Shown: positions 15,941 through 23,886, counted from the stretch's first letter. The stretch: 32,000 nt of DNA from Candidatus Heimdallarchaeota archaeon B3_Heim (GCA_003144275.1 NJBF01000037.1:6818-38817), one strand, 5' to 3'. Notes: generated from the sequence alone by a model not told the origin. Translations and numbers: made by a program.

Positions 15941-16591
15941 ATGCAAATTTACTTGATTAGACACGGAGAAAGTACAGGTAACAAAGAAAAAGCTTTTCAG
16001 GGATGGAATAACGTTCATTTAAGTGAACAGGGAAAAATCCAGGCTAAAAAATTGGCTGATTATCTTTTCGGGGAAAAAATTAACCTAAGGATAATATTTT
16101 CTAGCCCTCTCATTCGAGCAATGGAAACTGCAGAACCATTAACGATTTGTTCAACTAGTCCTGATATAATTACAGTTGATGGATTTAAATCGATTAATGT
16201 CGGTGAATGGGGAGGAATTTTGATATCAAGGGTGAAAGAGGATTTTCCAAAGGAGTACAATATTTGGAAGCATTCACCAACAAAATTCCGTTTTCCGAAA
16301 GGGGAATCCTTAACTGATGTTCACAACCGCTCCCAAGCTTCTCTTATACATATCTTGCATAAATATATTGATTTTGGTGGAAATATCGCAATAGTTTCAC
16401 ATATGATTACTATCAAAGCGTTAGCATTGTGGATGCTTGGGAAAAATCTAGGAAACATCTGGAAAAAAGAATATACAGTGCCTAATACTGGTATAATGGT
16501 TTTTAAAGTGGAAAAGGAAGAATCGACCGATTTCAGTTTCCAGCGCGTTGAAATAAATAATCCTATACCACATTTAGAGTCTACAATCTAG
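15941..16591 (+). CDS. Histidine phosphatase family protein (PGAM/CobC-like)
   Basis: IYLIRHGES; FQGW; SSPLIRAMETA; PKGES; IVSH. Confidence 0.92.
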   Translation: MQIYLIRHGESTGNKEKAFQGWNNVHLSEQGKIQAKKLADYLFGEKINLRIIFSSPLIRAMETAEPLTICSTSPDIITVDGFKSINVGEWGGILISRVKEDFPKEYNIWKHSPTKFRFPKGESLTDVHNRSQASLIHILHKYIDFGGNIAIVSHMITIKALALWMLGKNLGNIWKKEYTVPNTGIMVFKVEKEESTDFSFQRVEINNPIPHLESTI

Positions 16592-17202
16592 GAAGAGAGA
16601 GATTTCTTCCCACAATGCGTACAGAAGATACTACCTGCCTCTAATTGCCTTCCACAAGATGGACATTGTGAACCAGATATCGGATCTGATAATGTTTGCT
16701 TATTCAAAGTCTTATCAACATTCTCAGGTGGATAATAACGTTCTTTATACTCTGAAGTTGATCTTTCTTCAATTAATGCACCTAAGGTTCCCGCAATTAG
16801 AAAAAATCCATAAGCTGTAACAAGAGTGTATCCAAAGGATATTGTTGGTAAAAAAAGTCCAATTAAAATAACAAACGCCCCTATTCCTCCAATGAGCGTT
16901 ATGACTGCCCCCTTTTGAGATTTATTAAGGATAAATGGACCTGGTTTGCTGGATGTTACAACTATTAATCCGTTTAGGACTCCTGTCACTAGAAAGAATG
17001 GAAAGGCTATTACGATTGCCAAACCAAAGTCTATATGTTGGGCAAAAATAGACAATAATATAGGAAAAACGCCAATTCCACCAATAAATGTGATCAGAGC
17101 TTCTTTGTAATTCTTCTTCAATCTGTACACCTCTTCGGAAGTAGGAATTATATTTGAGAGTACTGTTCTCGTGTTTATATGATTTTGAATAGAGGTATAC
17201 AT
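16588..17202 (-). CDS. Membrane protein with duplicated two-helix unit and C-terminal zinc ribbon
   Basis: ALITFIGGIG...FG...FFLVTG and AVITLIGGIG...FG...FFLIAG; CPSCG...FCTHCG. ATG 17202 after GGTGA preferred over TTG 17226. Confidence 0.8.
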   Translation of the reverse strand: MYTSIQNHINTRTVLSNIIPTSEEVYRLKKNYKEALITFIGGIGVFPILLSIFAQHIDFGLAIVIAFPFFLVTGVLNGLIVVTSSKPGPFILNKSQKGAVITLIGGIGAFVILIGLFLPTISFGYTLVTAYGFFLIAGTLGALIEERSTSEYKERYYPPENVDKTLNKQTLSDPISGSQCPSCGRQLEAGSIFCTHCGKKSLSS

Positions 17203-17241
17203 TCTCACCATCCTTAGCCTAATCAACTCACTAAGTTGTCC

Positions 17242-17943
17242 CTACTCTGGTGTTTTCCTTTTTATTTGTATTTTAGATATTTTCGTTTTGATTATTGTGG
17301 GAGGGACAGATTCTTCTTCCATTGGTCTTTTTTCTAGGATAGATTTTGGAGGTGTTTTACTCCTGATATCTTTTTTGTGCTTTTGTTTGAATCCTAGTGT
17401 GCTAGGGGGAGGTATAGTTGTTTTGTTGGGAATTTCTGCGGTGATGCGATGTGGAGGAGTCTTGTTTATTATCCGATTTCGTTTCTTTTCAGCAATACCT
17501 CTACGAGTTGGTGGGACATTTTTATGATCCTGGATTTTTTTTCTTCGTGGGGGGACTTTTCGATTTACTAGGCCTTTTTTACGTCTTGATTTTGGGAGGC
17601 TCCCTTTAGTAGATGGAGTTGCCAATTCTTTCCTACCGTGAGTCTGAGTAACAGGAGGAAGATTGTTCGTGCTAGGTATTTGCTTTTTTCTCTTTTCTTT
17701 TGTTCCATGACTGGTGGGATAGGTACCAGATTCTTTTTTTATTAGTCCATTCTCATTTTTTCGCGCAGGAGGTAGCTTAAATTGCTCTTTCAAATCATTA
17801 GGAGTTTTTTGTTGAATAGTAGCAACTTTTTCTTTCATTGGAGTTTTCTCTTTGATTGTATCCTTCGGCTTTTTTGATCGAACTTTGAATCGAGCCACTT
17901 TGTACATACCATCCTGCACTATTTTCAAAAATAACTTCTTCAA
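17242..17943 (-). CDS. Lys/Pro/Arg-rich low-complexity protein with repeated xPP motifs
   Basis: 233-aa open frame in an AT-rich genome, in operon orientation; eight [LVTI]PP motifs. Confidence 0.65.
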   Translation of the reverse strand: MKKLFLKIVQDGMYKVARFKVRSKKPKDTIKEKTPMKEKVATIQQKTPNDLKEQFKLPPARKNENGLIKKESGTYPTSHGTKEKRKKQIPSTNNLPPVTQTHGRKELATPSTKGSLPKSRRKKGLVNRKVPPRRKKIQDHKNVPPTRRGIAEKKRNRIINKTPPHRITAEIPNKTTIPPPSTLGFKQKHKKDIRSKTPPKSILEKRPMEEESVPPTIIKTKISKIQIKRKTPE

Positions 17944-17991
17944 TTAAATGTACATTATTCGATTTTTAACAATTTGGAAATTGCGTAAGGA

Positions 17992-18576
17992 TTATTTTCC
18001 CAGAATAAATCCAATTCCAGAGAAAACGAAAAAGAGACCGTATAATATTCCAAGAAAATCAGATGCAAATGCTCCAGCAATTAGAAATAGAATCCCGAAG
18101 ATAAGAAATGTGAAAATTGCCGTCCATTCGGCGGAAGGCCCCCTCTCAGACTGAGCAGTAATTCTAATGAATTGATAGCGAGTGAAACTTCTTATTAACA
18201 ACGCTGTTGAGACCACTAAATACGGAAAAGCAAGTAAGGAAGGGACTGCAATATGAAGTTCGATGAATTCATTTGAAGGCATCATATTAATTTCAAAGGA
18301 TAATAAAACTTCTTGAAAAATAGGAATAAAGGGACTAGTAAAGACAATTACTAGAGGAATGATATTTGCAAGGGATATAAAGTAGATTTCGTTTAAAGTG
18401 GCATGATGATCAACGTAGTAGAATATCCGTAGGAAGTACAATATAGTAATCGCGGTGTAAATGGATAAGAAAAGGATGTTAAGAGCTAATGTATCCTTAT
18501 TCTGTATAAAAAAGAAAATTGTAGCTGATACGCCAATGAGCATGATAAACCAAGCGATATTATGTCGTATAGCCAT
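17992..18576 (-). CDS. Multi-pass membrane protein in the ubiquitin cluster
   Basis: About 6 hydrophobic segments; 18 bp downstream of the RING gene. Confidence 0.8.
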   Translation of the reverse strand: MAIRHNIAWFIMLIGVSATIFFFIQNKDTLALNILFLSIYTAITILYFLRIFYYVDHHATLNEIYFISLANIIPLVIVFTSPFIPIFQEVLLSFEINMMPSNEFIELHIAVPSLLAFPYLVVSTALLIRSFTRYQFIRITAQSERGPSAEWTAIFTFLIFGILFLIAGAFASDFLGILYGLFFVFSGIGFILGK

Positions 18577-18594
18577 AAGTAATCAATAAACTCC

Positions 18595-19707
18595 TTATTT
18601 TCTGTATTTTTTCTGGAACATTTGAATTATTTTCTGATAACTGGGTCCTGAAATCCGGATCATTTTTACATTATTAATGGGTTTATTACAACGGCTACAA
18701 ATATTAGACACTAGAAGCCATTTTTGAAACTCATCAGCATGAGATGGATGTTTACAACGGGGGCAAATGACTACTTGTTTATCTGATTCTGTGGGAAATT
18801 CATAGCAATAAATACATCGAAAATCGTCCTTTGAAATGTTCTGACCTGCTGGGGTTAAACTGGCAATAAGTGCAGGAGTTAGCTTCCTCTTTGTTCTCTT
18901 TGGCATGTGTATTGGAGGAGCGACCTGAACATTTGATCTCTGGGGACTTCTACTCGCTCTTTCCTGTACTTGAGTTACACGTGATGGCTGTGGAGTTGAT
19001 CGACGAGTTTCTACTGATGTTCTAGAAGATCTAACAGCTCTTCTCTGTGATTGAAAATCTCTAGTGGAAGTTCTAGAAACCCGTCTAAAGGGAATAATTA
19101 CAAATTTGAGTATATAATTTTGAAAGAAGGTTAGGATACTGAAAAGTAAGAAAAATAATGACGATAGTTCAATTGTTTTCTGATCTAACCAAAAAATGGT
19201 GAAAATTACAAGAAAACTTGCATTTAACACAATTATCGATTCAGAAGGAAATCGTCGTCGAAATATGAAAATATTAGGATAGGTTCCAGAATAGTATCTT
19301 CTAATTAGAATTCCGAGGATTGCAAAGAAGGGTAAACAAAATATTAGACTAAATAAATTTAAAAACAGATAGAAAGAATCTAGCTGAAATAAATTTAGGT
19401 TTAAATCTAATTCAATAAATGTTGCATGGAGAATATTTTCAGTATCGTCCAATGTGGCAGTAAATGCAGTCAAACTCCCCCCGATAGCAATCAGGGCAGG
19501 AATACTAATGAAAATTGCTGAAGCTAGTGGAGCATTATATGATCGGTAATATCGCCATTCATCTACTAGTTTGATTAGTAAAATAGCAACGAAAGTGAAA
19601 TAAATTAACGTTATCGAGAGAGAGCTTTGTGGGTTAACGATTTGGCTTAAGAACGCAAAGACCAATCCAGTGAGAAAAACAGAAATATAGACATTTCTTC
19701 CAACCAA
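18595..19707 (-). CDS. Membrane-anchored RING-H2-like E3 ligase candidate (~6 TM, disordered linker, RING)
   Basis: CIYC-x13-CPRCKHPSHADEFQKW-x6-CSRC after an R/S/Q-rich linker; located in the E1/E2/Ubl cluster. Confidence 0.8.
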   Translation of the reverse strand: MVGRNVYISVFLTGLVFAFLSQIVNPQSSLSITLIYFTFVAILLIKLVDEWRYYRSYNAPLASAIFISIPALIAIGGSLTAFTATLDDTENILHATFIELDLNLNLFQLDSFYLFLNLFSLIFCLPFFAILGILIRRYYSGTYPNIFIFRRRFPSESIIVLNASFLVIFTIFWLDQKTIELSSLFFLLFSILTFFQNYILKFVIIPFRRVSRTSTRDFQSQRRAVRSSRTSVETRRSTPQPSRVTQVQERASRSPQRSNVQVAPPIHMPKRTKRKLTPALIASLTPAGQNISKDDFRCIYCYEFPTESDKQVVICPRCKHPSHADEFQKWLLVSNICSRCNKPINNVKMIRISGPSYQKIIQMFQKKYRK

Positions 19708-19730
19708 ATAGATTTCACGACCTCATCTTC

Positions 19731-20552
19731 TCAATCATAGTCATATTCTAAGAACATTGTTTTCCCTTCTGCTAAGGGTAGTAGTGTGCTGATTAATTCC
19801 GGAAGACTTTCTAAAGGACAGTTTAAAACTTCATGACGAGGTTCTTCCCATGTTTTCAAATCTTTTTTTAGCCTGAAGATTTTGAATCCATAATTTCTTC
19901 TGGATATTTTAGTTGGATCAATAACGAGGGCTATCGGCGCCGCGAGTTGAGATCCTTTAGTTCCTAATTTTTGATAGCGAACTTGTGTTCTATAATCCGT
20001 TGTACTCATAAATGCTCCATAAGAAGGATGTGAATGGTACCATCCAAGAATTAGTTCCTTTTTCTTCCTACTTTCATTAAATACTCGCACCATGCTTTGG
20101 GGATCCTCGATTTGGGCATTAACATTTGTGCCATGACCTACTGGAAATGCATCTGTAATCACCAGACACGCAAGGGGAGTGTCTTTATTTTCAATATGTC
20201 CTGTTAACAGCCCTATAACTTCAACCCATTCTACTTGAGGAATTGTTGAATTTGCATACTTTAGAGCATGGAGACTTAGACGGATATAGGCTTTTAATTG
20301 AAGTTTCACTCTTGCTGGATCAATTTCAGGATCTAGATCATCAATATCGAGTAAGTCTTCTTCTCCCTGAGTGCGGTCATTTTTCAACGAAAACGTCTCC
20401 TCTGAAGGAGGAATTTTTTTGGATTCAGTAGTCGGGAATTTTAAAGTAAGAGTTAAATTATCTGGATCATAATTCATGGAGGTATCTCTCAGAAGAAGTT
20501 CGAATAAATTCCGCGGTTTTTCTTTTTTTTTATCTGGCATCAAATAGACCAC
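19731..20552 (-). CDS. JAB/MPN+ (JAMM) metalloprotease, Rpn11/CSN5-like deubiquitinase
   Basis: EVIGLL...GWYHSHPSYGAFMSTTD (E...HxH-x7-S-x2-D); ALVIDP. Confidence 0.93.
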   Translation of the reverse strand: MVYLMPDKKKEKPRNLFELLLRDTSMNYDPDNLTLTLKFPTTESKKIPPSEETFSLKNDRTQGEEDLLDIDDLDPEIDPARVKLQLKAYIRLSLHALKYANSTIPQVEWVEVIGLLTGHIENKDTPLACLVITDAFPVGHGTNVNAQIEDPQSMVRVFNESRKKKELILGWYHSHPSYGAFMSTTDYRTQVRYQKLGTKGSQLAAPIALVIDPTKISRRNYGFKIFRLKKDLKTWEEPRHEVLNCPLESLPELISTLLPLAEGKTMFLEYDYD

Positions 20553-20585
20553 TTTTGCTGGTACTTTACTAATCTTCTCAAATCC

Positions 20586-21113
20586 TCACCACTTCTTTTT
20601 TGCATACTTCTTAGTGATTTTTTTAGCCTTTTCTTTGAATTTACCCTTATTTTTCAGGTATTCCACTGCAGCTTTCTTGTTAAAAACATCATGAGGGTTG
20701 GTGTAAGCTTCATCAATATTGAACATGGCTAAAATTGAGTATATCACTGTGGTAACGTTTTTTGACGGAGACCATCCTTGTGGTTTCCCTACCAAGTCGG
20801 GGTCGACTAATCCAAGACAAATATTCCGTTTTCCCTTGTATTCATCAGGTTTGGGCCAAAAATTCGGGTGCCAAATCGGGGTATGTAATCTTACGAAAGG
20901 AGGAGAATAGGGGTAATTGGAACCAAATTTGATTTCGAGCATAAACTTCCCGTCTTGGTAGGGAGTACCTTTTGGACCTTCGAGAAGAATAGCTAAGTGC
21001 TCTACACTTTTTTTCTCTCCTGGGAAAGCTTTTAGCTGTTTAATCGTCTTTTGCTTGTAAAGAGTTTTTAATTGATTATAATCTTCTGCAATACGTTTAA
21101 TGCGAATAGACAT
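20586..21113 (-). CDS. E2 ubiquitin-conjugating enzyme family protein
   Basis: GPKGTPYQDGKF; YPYSPP; IWHPN; catalytic ICL; WSP. Confidence 0.95.
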   Translation of the reverse strand: MSIRIKRIAEDYNQLKTLYKQKTIKQLKAFPGEKKSVEHLAILLEGPKGTPYQDGKFMLEIKFGSNYPYSPPFVRLHTPIWHPNFWPKPDEYKGKRNICLGLVDPDLVGKPQGWSPSKNVTTVIYSILAMFNIDEAYTNPHDVFNKKAAVEYLKNKGKFKEKAKKITKKYAKKKW

Positions 21114-21119
21114 GATAAA

Positions 21120-22358
21120 TTAACCTTCTAACTTTAGTGTAAGATATGCTTGTGATCCATCGTCAAAACCTGTTACAAGAACTGTCTCACAATCCCTTAT
21201 TTCAGCTTGAGATATTGTTTGTTCCATAGATATTTCCCCAACTTCAGAAGAATCAATCCTAAATATCATAGGAGGAAATTCAGGGTCAATTGGGTAATTT
21301 TTATTATGAGAAAATTTCTCTATTAACCGTGTTAAAGGAAAGTTTCGTTTAACTTTGATACGAAACATTGAAGTTCTTCCCCGTCCACACATCTCGCATT
21401 TGGGATTACGTGGTTTTTCAATCTCATAAAATTTACCCGTTAAACCATTATAAATCAAATAGTTCAATTGGATATTCCCCAATTTCTTATCTGGCTCTGG
21501 TGTGTGAATATGATGTAGTATTTTGACAGCCTCTTGTGATTGAAGAGATGCCATTACGCAATTTATCGTGATAACTGTCGGCTCGTGATTATCAATTATC
21601 TGAATAATCTGGTTGATCGAAAATTGCTCTTCTTGGGGAAAATATTCTTTGAGAAGTTTATTTGCATATAAAACCACATCTTTAACTTCATTTGACTTTA
21701 GAATATTAACTGGTTTTCCGTGTTTTTGTTCGAAGTGTAACTGTCCTTTAAGAATACAATGAGCTGGTCTACGAGGTTTTCCCACAAGTGTACATGCTCC
21801 AAGCTGATCTTGATTACGTTCAGTTAAAGGATCACACTCCAAGCATGCGTTATTGAACGGAGAAACTACATATGTATGGCCATTGTACACTGAAGTGCCT
21901 GCATCAATGAGATATTTCTTGTTATGAACTGCTCTTCGATTTAATTCAGATCTAGCTTCAATAGAGTCAAGACCAGCAATATAAAAATCGACCTTGCTGT
22001 AAATATGAGGAGGTACATCTTGTAAGGGGCAATCATAAGCATCAATGGTGATGAATGGATTCATTTCACGAAGTCTTTTCGCTGCGATCTTTGCTTTTGA
22101 AGCACCCTCTGGTGCACCAATAAACAATATCTGACGATTCAAATTTGAATATTCTATTGTATCAAGATCCACAAGTATTAAGTGTCCAACACCAACCATA
22201 GCCAAGTTTTTAGCTATTTCTACGCCTAAGCCCCCTATTCCCGCAATGAGGACTGAGCTTTGTTTTAGAATTTCCTGGTTCCATCCAGGAAGACGAAATT
22301 GACGATCAAAGCGTCGTTTTTCCTCATGTGTTAGTGTTTTACTTGTGAAATTTGACAT
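21120..22358 (-). CDS. E1 ubiquitin-like activating enzyme (ThiF fold, UBA3/UBA2-like catalytic insert, probable C-terminal ubiquitin-fold domain)
   Basis: RFDRQ; GIGGLG; SNLNRQILF; CLEC and CEMC zinc pairs; GACTLVGKPRRPAHC. Confidence 0.95.
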   Translation of the reverse strand: MSNFTSKTLTHEEKRRFDRQFRLPGWNQEILKQSSVLIAGIGGLGVEIAKNLAMVGVGHLILVDLDTIEYSNLNRQILFIGAPEGASKAKIAAKRLREMNPFITIDAYDCPLQDVPPHIYSKVDFYIAGLDSIEARSELNRRAVHNKKYLIDAGTSVYNGHTYVVSPFNNACLECDPLTERNQDQLGACTLVGKPRRPAHCILKGQLHFEQKHGKPVNILKSNEVKDVVLYANKLLKEYFPQEEQFSINQIIQIIDNHEPTVITINCVMASLQSQEAVKILHHIHTPEPDKKLGNIQLNYLIYNGLTGKFYEIEKPRNPKCEMCGRGRTSMFRIKVKRNFPLTRLIEKFSHNKNYPIDPEFPPMIFRIDSSEVGEISMEQTISQAEIRDCETVLVTGFDDGSQAYLTLKLEG

Positions 22359-22383
22359 ACCATTTGCTCCTCTGAGAGTGGGA

Positions 22384-22734
22384 TTATCCTGCAGTACTTA
22401 CAGGAATAATTAGGACTTCTAGTCCATCTTCCAGATCATAATTTGACAATACATCATCCGAATCCAATGTTCGTCCACTAATTGAAAGGTGAAAGTCTTG
22501 TGTATCTAGTGCAAATATTTCACCAACTGTTGCGGCTAATTCTCGTACAGACAGTTCTGGATCTACAGTTAGTTTTTCTTGTTTTTCATGGCGTCCAATT
22601 GTTGATCGGAAGAATAATGTTATTCGTTGTCCATTTGGGATTTTGGAACGCGGAACTTTCGATTGTATCGATGAATCGTTTTGCCCCTCTTCCTCTTCTT
22701 CTTCAAATTCAATAAACTCTTCATTTTCCGACAT
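22384..22734 (-). CDS. Ubiquitin-like protein B (acidic N-terminus, ends STAG)
   Basis: Beta-grasp pattern FFRSTIG...FHLSISGRTLD...YDLEDG..VLIIP; start at ATG 22734 chosen by parallel with its paralog (ORF track extends to 22881). Confidence 0.85.
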   Translation of the reverse strand: MSENEEFIEFEEEEEEGQNDSSIQSKVPRSKIPNGQRITLFFRSTIGRHEKQEKLTVDPELSVRELAATVGEIFALDTQDFHLSISGRTLDSDDVLSNYDLEDGLEVLIIPVSTAG

Positions 22735-22983
22735 AATTACGGCTTCCCTAGTATTCTCGGTGATAAATTCTGGAAAGATTTTGTCCTTAACTTTCGGAGG
22801 TGTTCCAGTTCTTAAAATTTGTAAAGAGAATACAATCAGTTTCATCGTAATCCTTCCATAAATATCTATCTGAATTTTCAACTATATGCCAGTTAATTGG
22901 GATTGAAGAGTTTCTATCTAGTTTTAATTATTTTCAACCTTTTATTTTTGCAAAAATTGGGAAAAAGTGAATTAATCCCCTTA

Positions 22984-23337
22984 TTAATTCCATCCAGCGG
23001 TTGAATGAGGAATTAAGAGGATTTCATCACCATTTTCGATTCCATAATCTCCGATTGGAGAGCTTTCATCCAGAGTTCGTCCAGCATGAGATAAGTGAAA
23101 ATCATCTGGATCTAATCCAAATATATTCGCTAGTGTATCTCGGACATCTCTCACGGGTGTTTTTTCACCGACGGAGAGTTTCTCTGTTCTCTCAGGGCCA
23201 ACGGTTGATTTAAAGAAAATATTCTTCTTGGGTCCAGAGGTAGTCCCTGTTACGGGTGTCTTCGACTGTGCAGGAGTTTTTGCCTTTACAGACGATGTTT
23301 CTTCAAGATCAAAATCTATATCTTCAAAGTCACTCAT
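22984..23337 (-). CDS. Ubiquitin-like protein A (acidic N-terminus, ends STAG-WN)
   Basis: FFKSTVG...FHLSHAGRTLD...YGIENGDEILLIP; paralog of 22384-22734. Confidence 0.88.
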   Translation of the reverse strand: MSDFEDIDFDLEETSSVKAKTPAQSKTPVTGTTSGPKKNIFFKSTVGPERTEKLSVGEKTPVRDVRDTLANIFGLDPDDFHLSHAGRTLDESSPIGDYGIENGDEILLIPHSTAGWN

Positions 23338-23505: not shown

Positions 23506-23886
23506 GTGTCGAAAGAAGCTCAAAATGTCAAGATTTCTAGTAAGGCATGGGAGATGCTTCGTTGGGCAAAATTTGAACTAACTGAGAAATCTTATAGCGA
23601 TGTACTCATCAAATTAGATGGTACAATTCAGAACAGAGCTCATTCTCTTCAAGAGGAACTTAAGGAGTTTGATGAAGGTCGTCATAGGATTGAAATGAAA
23701 ATCCCAGGAGAAGGGAAAGTAACTAAAAGTTCGAAAACTATTCTACTAAGACCAGATGCTCATAAAATCTTAAGTCGTCTCAAACTTGAAAGTAATACAT
23801 CTGCGTACACATTTTCAGATGCTATTGAGTTTCTGATAAAACAAAATTCAGCTATTTGGGAAAGTATTCCAGATCGCTTGAAATAA
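23506..23886 (+). CDS. Putative DNA-binding protein with two tandem ribbon-helix-helix-like units
   Basis: NVKISSKAWEMLRWAKFELTEKSYSDVLIKL and TILLRPDAHKILSRLKLESNTSAYTFSDAIEFLI. Confidence 0.6.
   Translation: MSKEAQNVKISSKAWEMLRWAKFELTEKSYSDVLIKLDGTIQNRAHSLQEELKEFDEGRHRIEMKIPGEGKVTKSSKTILLRPDAHKILSRLKLESNTSAYTFSDAIEFLIKQNSAIWESIPDRLK

Follow-up and report, generated by a model that had tools for sequence, protein, structure and literature searches.

Can an archaeal ubiquitin-type conjugation operon carry its ligase in the membrane? This question is raised by a stretch of DNA from Candidatus Heimdallarchaeota archaeon B3_Heim (GCA_003144275.1, NJBF01000037.1:6818-38817), hereafter the window, which comprises 32,000 nt and from whose first letter all coordinates are counted. 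Protein labels of close relatives place the lineage in Hodarchaeales, class Heimdallarchaeia, Asgard archaea. A first-pass annotation of the window had described nine consecutive minus-strand genes at 16588-23337, encoding a complete set of ubiquitin-like modifiers (Ubls), E1, E2 and JAMM protease built around a polytopic membrane RING protein. Our listing of open reading frames (ORFs) bore out the nine genes, their coordinates and their 6-48 bp spacing from the second modifier, Ubl-B, onward (gaps of 25, 6, 33, 23, 18, 48 and 15 bp), and family matches together with the RING profile and fold bore out the set. We consider it probable that the locus is a self-contained Ubl conjugation operon in which a membrane-embedded variant RING protein serves as the dedicated E3.

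The operon opens with two ubiquitin-fold modifiers. Ubl-A (117 aa; 22984-23337, minus strand) matched Pfam ubiquitin at 1.2e-8, and its nearest solved sequences were ubiquitin and the Caldiarchaeum Ub-like protein. Ubl-B (22384-22881, minus strand), listed at 165 aa, matched Pfam ubiquitin at 1e-3, below the cutoff, and shares 47-49% identity with Ubl-A over the fold. Because similarity to distant orthologues begins near residue 46-79, the true start of Ubl-B is more likely Met50 (~22734), which would give a protein of 116 aa and a gap to Ubl-A of ~250 bp rather than the ~100 bp of the listing. Ubl-B ends exactly in ...IPVSTAG, and Ubl-A ends in ...IPHSTAG-WN, a precursor with a two-residue tail. 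Across all orthologous modifiers the C-terminal ..IP[V/H/F]STAG was invariant and followed by 0-3 further residues, which makes Ala-Gly, rather than Gly-Gly, the conjugating end. The copy bearing the tail varied by genome, being Ubl-A here (WN) and Ubl-B in several relatives (IK, SIN, IYY, Y, I). Additionally, acidic N-terminal extensions of ~40 residues preceded the ubiquitin fold in both modifiers, in the window as in the orthologous loci.

Three enzymes follow on the same strand. The E1 Ubl-activating enzyme (412 aa; 21120-22358) consists of a ThiF adenylation domain (2e-52) and a C-terminal region, with UBA1 (1.8e-34) and the NEDD8 E1 UBA3 (5e-28; residues 30-326) as its best solved relatives and MoeB behind them (1.5e-23). 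The E2 Ubl-conjugating enzyme (175 aa; 20586-21113) has a UBC fold with HPN...Cys (UQ_con 1e-26); its relatives include UBE2R2, Ubc13 and UBE2T at ~1e-16, and the HPNFWP...NIC motif was found in all orthologues read full-length. The JAMM/MPN+ metalloprotease (19731-20552; JAB 2.6e-15) is Rpn11-like: among solved proteins the Rpn11-like 6fjv of Caldiarchaeum came closest (9e-12), with CSN5 and Rpn11 next. The enzyme keeps the H-x-H-x7-S-x2-D motif in 17/17 orthologues and probably both processes Ubl precursors and removes conjugated Ubls. The family identities of the Ubls, E1, E2 and JAMM protease are solid at the level of sequence.

The membrane RING protein and its paralogue

The next gene, a minus-strand ORF at 18595-19707, encodes the 370-aa membrane RING protein. 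Its AlphaFold model (mean predicted local distance difference test score, pLDDT, 77.7) divides into three parts: a six-helix membrane module (residues 1-208; 19084-19707; pLDDT ~85-95), a disordered linker rich in Arg, Ser and Thr (residues 209-282; 18862-19083; pLDDT <50 over residues 208-273) and a C-terminal variant RING domain defined by family profile and fold (residues 283-370; 18598-18861; pLDDT 85-90). The helices span residues 2-24, 30-57, 64-80, 118-140, 157-176 and 181-208; a beta-hairpin separates the third from the fourth. Charges are +3/-2 and +5/-1 in the cytoplasmic loops, +19/-3 in the tail and 0/-6 in the outer loop. The positive-inside rule thus places the N-terminus, loops 2-3 and 4-5 and the Arg-rich tail in the cytoplasm and the acidic hairpin loop outside, a predicted N-in/C-in topology, and the RING would therefore face the cytoplasm, the side of E1 and E2.

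We then asked how fixed this architecture is. A profile of the membrane module alone retrieved 85 cluster representatives among 1.84 billion proteins, mostly of 340-465 aa and with the module in N-terminal position, and 62 of the 64 representatives of at least 330 aa carried the RING finger motif. With the module nearly always fused to the RING variant, this is essentially one fixed architecture. No structural relative of the module, solved or predicted, was found by structure searches of the PDB, in the ESM Atlas or by PDB profiles; searches of the ESM Atlas by features and by structure gave no usable match (all TM <0.5). In the linkers of 114 family members Arg made up 16.5% and Lys 6.4%, and in the short tail after the RING Lys made up 17% and Arg 8%; in neighbouring proteins Lys exceeds Arg. 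We considered Lys avoidance in the linker as self-protection from auto-modification and dropped the idea, a Lys content of 6.4% being an ordinary level.

The finger itself follows the pattern C298-x2-C301...C315-x2-C318-x-H320-x2-H323-x2-E326...W330...C337-x2-C340. In alignments of 27-30 family members C298, C301, C315, P316, C318, P321, H323, E326, W330, C337, R339 and C340 were invariant; the Trp at the W330 position was present in 62/62 representatives, and I299 was conserved in at least 90%. These two positions are, as we take it from general knowledge of RING-E2 structures, contacts to the E2. A profile of the C-terminal 88 residues matched the RING-H2 finger of RNF24 (2ep4) at E 2.4e-6, aligning C318-x-H320-x2-H323-x2-E326 with the C-x-H-x2-H-x2-C core, W330 with the RING-H2 Trp, and C337 and C340 with ligands 7 and 8. 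Behind RNF24 came mainly RING-H2 E3s (EL5, Arkadia, RNF165, RNF4, RNF38). The window's own finger scored 16.9 bits against zf-RING_2 (PF13639), where the cutoff is 27.3; searched member by member, 14/20 of the family matched zf-RING_2 (best 1e-6) and 19/20 matched Prok-RING_1. Structure searches agreed with the profiles. In Foldseek, residues ~285-369 matched only RING and U-box domains, at a probability of up to 1.0 (RNF4 2xeu, TM 0.70, root-mean-square deviation (rmsd) 2.0 over 59 columns; RNF165, TM 0.75), a non-Foldseek structure search with the whole model returned, for these residues, 3lrq (Z 8.7) and Ring1b (Z 7.9), and the fold matches in AFDB Swiss-Prot were all RING/U-box E3s.

By profile and predicted fold, then, the finger is a genuine member of the RING superfamily, though a variant and not a canonical RING-H2. 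We classed it as a variant because ligand 6 is Glu, His320 is unconserved and Cys315, three residues before ligand 3, is an extra invariant Cys. Seven Cys/His positions are conserved (C298, C301, C315, C318, H323, C337 and C340), which differs from the canonical eight-ligand cross-brace. The label RING-H2 given in the first-pass annotation therefore stands as to superfamily and falls as to canonical type. From the conservation pattern we infer that the zinc sites are likely C315/C318/C337/C340 and C298/C301/H323 with Glu326 or water. The same RING profile also matched the C-terminal zinc fingers of IFT144/WDR19 (E 4.6e-4) through a common CPHC-x-[FY]-PA stretch, and Pfam Zf_2nd_IFT121 matched 16/20 members of the RING family. 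These matches hint that the archaeal finger is linked to the degenerate, RING-like ones that protocoatomer-type proteins carry.

The gene downstream of the ligase candidate (17992-18576, minus strand; labelled TM4) encodes a 194-aa protein of six helices and a beta-hairpin. Pairwise BLASTP between the RING protein and this neighbour was not significant (E 0.42), and their relationship was visible only by profile-profile and structural comparison. In particular, hhalign gave the two families a probability of 93.3% (E 2.6e-7), with 168 aligned columns that run co-linearly through all six helices. AlphaFold2 modelled the protein alone at pLDDT 88.2 and a predicted TM-score of 0.80, in the order three helices, hairpin, three helices, as in the RING module. 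Its best non-self match among AFDB clusters covered residues 5-190 of a 'RING-type domain-containing protein' (TM 0.82, rmsd 2.6, E 2.3e-6), and the next two matches were further RING proteins. These alignments and models identify the neighbouring gene as a paralogue, without the RING, of the membrane module in the ligase candidate. Its family has 120 members, all labelled 'hypothetical', and the most conserved stretches in this family and in that of the RING protein are the cytoplasmic loops after helix 2 and helix 4. Complex prediction with the module (residues 1-212) and the paralogue scored 0.04 against a mark of 0.32 and, run without controls, counts neither way.

Conservation and distribution of the operon

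Is the membrane RING gene a constant member of the operon? Within the genus, 11/11 loci carry Ubl-A, Ubl-B, E1, E2, JAMM, membrane RING and paralogue in order. Loci from other families of the class keep E1, E2, JAMM and membrane RING together in 8/8 cases, two of which have the block E2-JAMM-RING-paralogue set beside Ubl-E1. Outside the class, 9/9 loci from three families of the phylum have Ubl-E1-E2-JAMM-membrane RING in order, and neither tblastn nor profile search found the paralogue downstream in these nine. The membrane RING gene thus lay beside E1/E2 in every orthologous locus examined (11 + 8 + 9), and the synteny on which the first-pass annotation had made its cluster depend held. Gene order kept over so many genomes rules out a chance arrangement. 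In every same-genus locus, and in most of the class's other families, the paralogue adjoins the RING gene. It was seen only in the Heimdall class, and the free copy looks, from this distribution of sequences, like a duplication within it.

Full-length matches to the RING protein were sought in a sample of 201 genomes of the phylum. High-scoring matches occurred throughout the window's class; beyond it, one further family had them in 31/40 genomes and three others in some of theirs, and none was found in the 43 genomes of yet another family in the sample. Exact cluster look-up labelled these distant carriers Lokiarchaeota/Promethearchaeia and Borrarchaeum, all annotated 'hypothetical protein', and the finger motif, including Glu, is identical in these Loki- and Borr-labelled lineages. 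Automatic annotation does name the RING in some relatives (AFDB 'RING-type domain-containing protein'). Two single loci differed in detail: in one relative (L015:7317-8223, G018) an insertion of ~900 bp parts the paralogue from the Lys/Pro-rich gene, and in another (G019:C103:5113-6216) the orthologue of the RING protein contains one in-frame TGA. In the searchable full-text literature we found no polytopic membrane RING in an Asgard ubiquitin operon, in keeping with the annotation's suggestion that an architecture of membrane E3 plus partner may be undescribed; a mention in closed-access text is possible.

Several observations weigh against an active membrane ligase with a RING-less partner. 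Glu occupies zinc ligand 6 in 61/62 family representatives, position 320 varies among His, Tyr, Phe and Arg across the family, and the 'linchpin' position, directly behind the last Cys, may be N, D, S or G; with ligands and linchpin non-canonical, activation of the E2 is not to be assumed. Single-sequence Pfam matches of the finger were all below cutoffs (zf-RING_16 0.023, Prok-RING_1 0.05). Pairing of ligase and paralogue is most likely, and it is adjacency and paralogy that suggest it. The paralogue, moreover, is not adjacent or is off-strand in two members of the class (L026 and L040) and gave no match in a third (L028). In addition, a sequencing-run search listed no RNA run containing the locus.

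The same search did list 17 DNA sequencing runs as matching; these came from metagenomes of marine sediment and cold seeps, and the best had 0.31 of the sampled words in common with the locus. GC content is even, at ~35% over the whole window, and the flanks hold ordinary genes (a peroxiredoxin, a histidine phosphatase, an MFS transporter and a methyltransferase). A scan for bacterial-type promoters and terminators, whose model is not applicable to archaeal promoters, gave fewer promoter-like sites than shuffled sequences.

The remaining genes of the cluster are less widely kept. Beyond the paralogue lie genes for a Lys/Pro-rich low-complexity protein (233 aa; 17242-17943, minus strand; K 20%, P 12%), which had no Pfam or NCBIfam match, and for a four-helix membrane protein with a C-terminal zinc ribbon (16588-17226, minus strand; Zn_Ribbon_1 2.7e-6). 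Positional homologues of the former occur only within the genus, at 25-50% identity over low-complexity sequence. The latter is confined to the three closest genomes and is probably not a core component. Both are lineage-specific add-ons rather than core genes. The first-pass annotation had counted three downstream genes as additional components of the system; this applies to the broadly conserved paralogue at 17992-18576 and fails for the genus-restricted Lys/Pro-rich gene and the zinc-ribbon gene. On the other side of Ubl-A, a divergent plus-strand gene (23506-23886) encodes a 126-aa candidate operon regulator of ribbon-helix-helix type (VAPB_antitox, RHH-like, 1.9e-5, below cutoff). It adjoins Ubl-A in most same-genus loci, and two of the other families in the class (L026, L027) also have it next to the operon.

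Possible roles of the conjugation system

What would such an operon do? In the mechanism that we propose, the JAMM protease would trim the two-residue tail of Ubl-A and reverse conjugates, and E1 would adenylate the terminal Gly and hand the Ubl to E2. The charged E2 would dock on the cytoplasmic RING, where the conserved Ile that follows the first Cys and the invariant Trp330 would be its contacts, and the Ubl would be moved to lysines of membrane or membrane-proximal proteins chosen by the membrane module. In Heimdallarchaeia, where the module is duplicated, the RING-less copy would pair with the ligase to form a heteromer in which one subunit is active and the other lacks the RING; in the Loki- and Borr-labelled lineages, where the operon ends at the RING protein, the ligase would act alone or as a homo-oligomer. 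Tagged proteins might then be degraded via Cdc48 and the proteasome, sorted or regulated.

The first of these fates corresponds to the proposal of the first-pass annotation, a membrane quality-control system resembling endoplasmic reticulum-associated degradation (ERAD). In its full form, the RING protein and its paralogue would make a channel-like complex, as Hrd1/Der1 do, and tag misfolded membrane or secreted proteins for Cdc48 and the proteasome. We regard this as unlikely. The layout does recall Hrd1 and gp78, two paralogous membrane subunits could in principle make a lateral gate, and four Cdc48-type ATPases are encoded elsewhere in the genome. The RINGs of Hrd1 and gp78 also appeared in the finger's profile list, weakly (E 0.27-0.9; synoviolin 0.27, AMFR 0.66). 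In a non-Foldseek structure search with the whole model, the second-ranked match was a chain of the human HRD1-SEL1L-XTP3B complex (9uav_B; residues 1-142, Z 8.1, rmsd 3.4, 114 residues, 4% identity). Helical bundles, however, reach such Z values by chance, within the tool's own noise range, and we dropped this lead when it did not recur with the paralogue model in any of three libraries (wide PDB structure search, Foldseek PDB and ESM Atlas), where the top rows were designed bundles and generic helical hairpins. Against all PDB sequences, the profile of the RING-protein module had no match at E<=10, and that of the paralogue had three weak rhodopsin matches (E>=0.12) and no Hrd1, gp78, Derlin or other ERAD chain. 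No member of the Hrd3/Sel1L, Derlin or Usa1 families is among the operon genes, the genome not having been searched for them, and no Cdc48 or proteasome gene lies near the operon. With the HRD1 match unreproduced and the profiles free of ERAD matches, the analogy with ERAD is therefore one of layout (a polytopic protein, a basic linker, a cytoplasmic RING). To that extent the analogy drawn in the earlier claim stands, and beyond it the analogy is unsupported; an ERAD-like function is speculation by analogy.

A version framed without common descent can also be put forward. The RING protein and paralogue would form a ligase complex that recognises substrates within the membrane and tags them for extraction by Cdc48 and the proteasome, a functional forerunner of ERAD with a fold that left no detectable eukaryotic descendant, using an Ala-Gly modifier and working in parallel to ESCRT-linked ubiquitin. 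We hold this to be distinctly unlikely.

Alternatively, the ligase could mark membrane proteins such as transporters, S-layer anchors and receptors for budding dependent on the ESCRT machinery (endosomal sorting complexes needed for transport) or for control of activity, in the manner of MARCH or Rsp5. The genome does contain an ESCRT-linked ubiquitin locus (contig C10, L057:1079-17460) with a 150-aa E2, a 70-aa small RING, an 80-aa ubiquitin ending in ...TTGG-MVR, a 349-aa E1-like gene, a UEV-like E2 variant, two Snf7/ESCRT-III genes and a Vps4-sized gene. This locus appears to be the published Asgard ubiquitin-ESCRT cluster (PMC9192718). Two reports further state that Asgard UEV domains bind ubiquitin and connect it to ESCRT (PMC9192718; bioRxiv 10.1101/2023.07.25.550441), and the Rpn11-like deconjugase of the window's operon would suit a reversible signal. 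The ESCRT cluster, however, lies on another contig and has its own GG-ended ubiquitin, E1-like protein, E2 and soluble small RING, so that the STAG system looks separate, and nothing ties the STAG-ended Ubls to UEV or ESCRT readers. A third Ubl locus in the same genome (contig C57, L058:1519-4800) encodes a 183-aa E2, a 109-aa Ubl ending in ...QIKGG and a 412-aa E1 with 40% identity to the window's E1, and has no adjacent RING or JAMM gene. Among the three, only the window's operon has STAG modifiers, a JAMM protease and a membrane E3. Since the other two loci are GG-ended and one has its own soluble RING, the window's operon is a separate, dedicated system, and we think a role in sorting or regulation unlikely as well.

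The finger might also be no ligase but a zinc-binding docking module, for instance one that receives the Ubl or E2 or has a regulatory part, within a membrane protein of other function (such as a transporter or enzyme) that is merely regulated or modified by the Ubl system. The non-canonical ligands, Glu at position 6 and the lack of a conserved linchpin would suit such a module, as would weak partial matches to UBZ (17/20 members) and to the C-terminal zinc fingers of IFT121 and IFT144, for which we know of no ligase activity. The UBZ matches, however, span only ~10 residues around one CxxC, whereas the best and only significant matches to the full-length domain are catalytic RING-H2 E3s. The fold matches are likewise RING/U-box E3 domains, many of them solved with E2s, the E2-contacting Ile and Trp positions are conserved, and the operon has no other E3 candidate. 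We therefore find the docking module quite improbable. That the operon serves antiviral defence of the Bil, CBASS-Cap2-Cap3 or 6A-MBL type, attaching Ubl to viral or host targets, is very improbable. Bacterial Ubl, E1, E2 and JAB operons do act in defence (PMC10557695), and the E1 gave partial matches to PADLOC E1-E2 models (best 2.9e-17) and NCBIfam 6A-MBL cap2_3 (1.2e-8). The E1 matches, however, are limited to generic ThiF, the JAB match is weak, and no defence model matched the E2, the two Ubls or the two membrane proteins. By sequence the E1 stands much nearer to eukaryotic UBA1 and UBA3. A conserved position with conserved neighbours, near-universal in the genus (10/10 high-quality relatives had a match to the RING protein), also argues against a defence island, such islands being patchy.

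We thus return to a dedicated membrane E3 in a self-contained operon. In the published work that we examined, Asgard and Aigarchaeota ubiquitin systems are described with small soluble RINGs and with a membrane link via ESCRT readers (PMC5654768, PMC6043591, PMC9192718). An operon with an integral membrane protein as its sole candidate for the E3, kept in Heimdall-, Loki- and Borr-labelled lineages, alters this picture. Ubiquitin-type tagging at the membrane may predate eukaryotes, and if our reading is correct, the membrane-placed ubiquitin-type ligase would be an archaeal rather than a eukaryotic invention. If the ligase is inactive or a mere tether, the finding shrinks to a lineage-specific variant of a known operon. 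The analysis also gives definition, among 'hypothetical protein' annotations, to a six-helix membrane module, a RING with Glu at a zinc-ligand position and an Ala-Gly-ended Ubl family. Two modifiers, E1, E2, JAMM, ligase and paralogue make a small, clonable system for membrane ubiquitylation before the endoplasmic reticulum.

Comparison with known systems

At the level of the single domain, the finger is closest to RNF24-type RING-H2 fingers, its best sequence match, in which Trp and the C-x2-C pairs line up ligand for ligand. It differs in that ligand 6 is Cys there and Glu here, an extra invariant Cys is present here, and the His at ligand 4 is often Tyr, Phe or Arg here.

The ligase with its paralogue can be set beside RING heterodimers with one inactive partner, such as BRCA1-BARD1, RING1B-BMI1 and MDM2-MDMX. 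As in these pairs, an active ligase would be encoded or expressed alongside a catalytically silent paralogue. Here, however, the paralogy lies in the membrane module, the partner wholly lacks a RING, and the pairing is proposed.

Hrd1/synoviolin and gp78/AMFR share with the membrane RING protein an N-terminal multi-pass domain, a basic or disordered linker and a cytoplasmic C-terminal finger of RING-H2 type. The module here, in contrast, has six helices and an external beta-hairpin rather than eight helices, and the membrane domain has no detectable sequence similarity and no reproducible structural similarity to theirs.

The closest system as a whole is the operon known from Caldiarchaeum subterraneum and Asgard archaea, which comprises Ub, an E1-like and an E2-like protein, a small RING finger protein ('srfp') and an Rpn11-like protein (PMC5654768, PMC6043591, PMC3082918). 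The operon in the window shares with it the component set and operon logic, E1 and E2 of eukaryote type, the Rpn11-like JAMM and one short-tailed precursor modifier. It departs from it in its modifiers, which end in Ala-Gly rather than Gly-Gly and stand two in tandem, in the Glu at ligand 6, and in the E3, which here is a 370-aa six-helix membrane RING protein, accompanied in Heimdallarchaeia by its paralogue, in place of a small soluble srfp.

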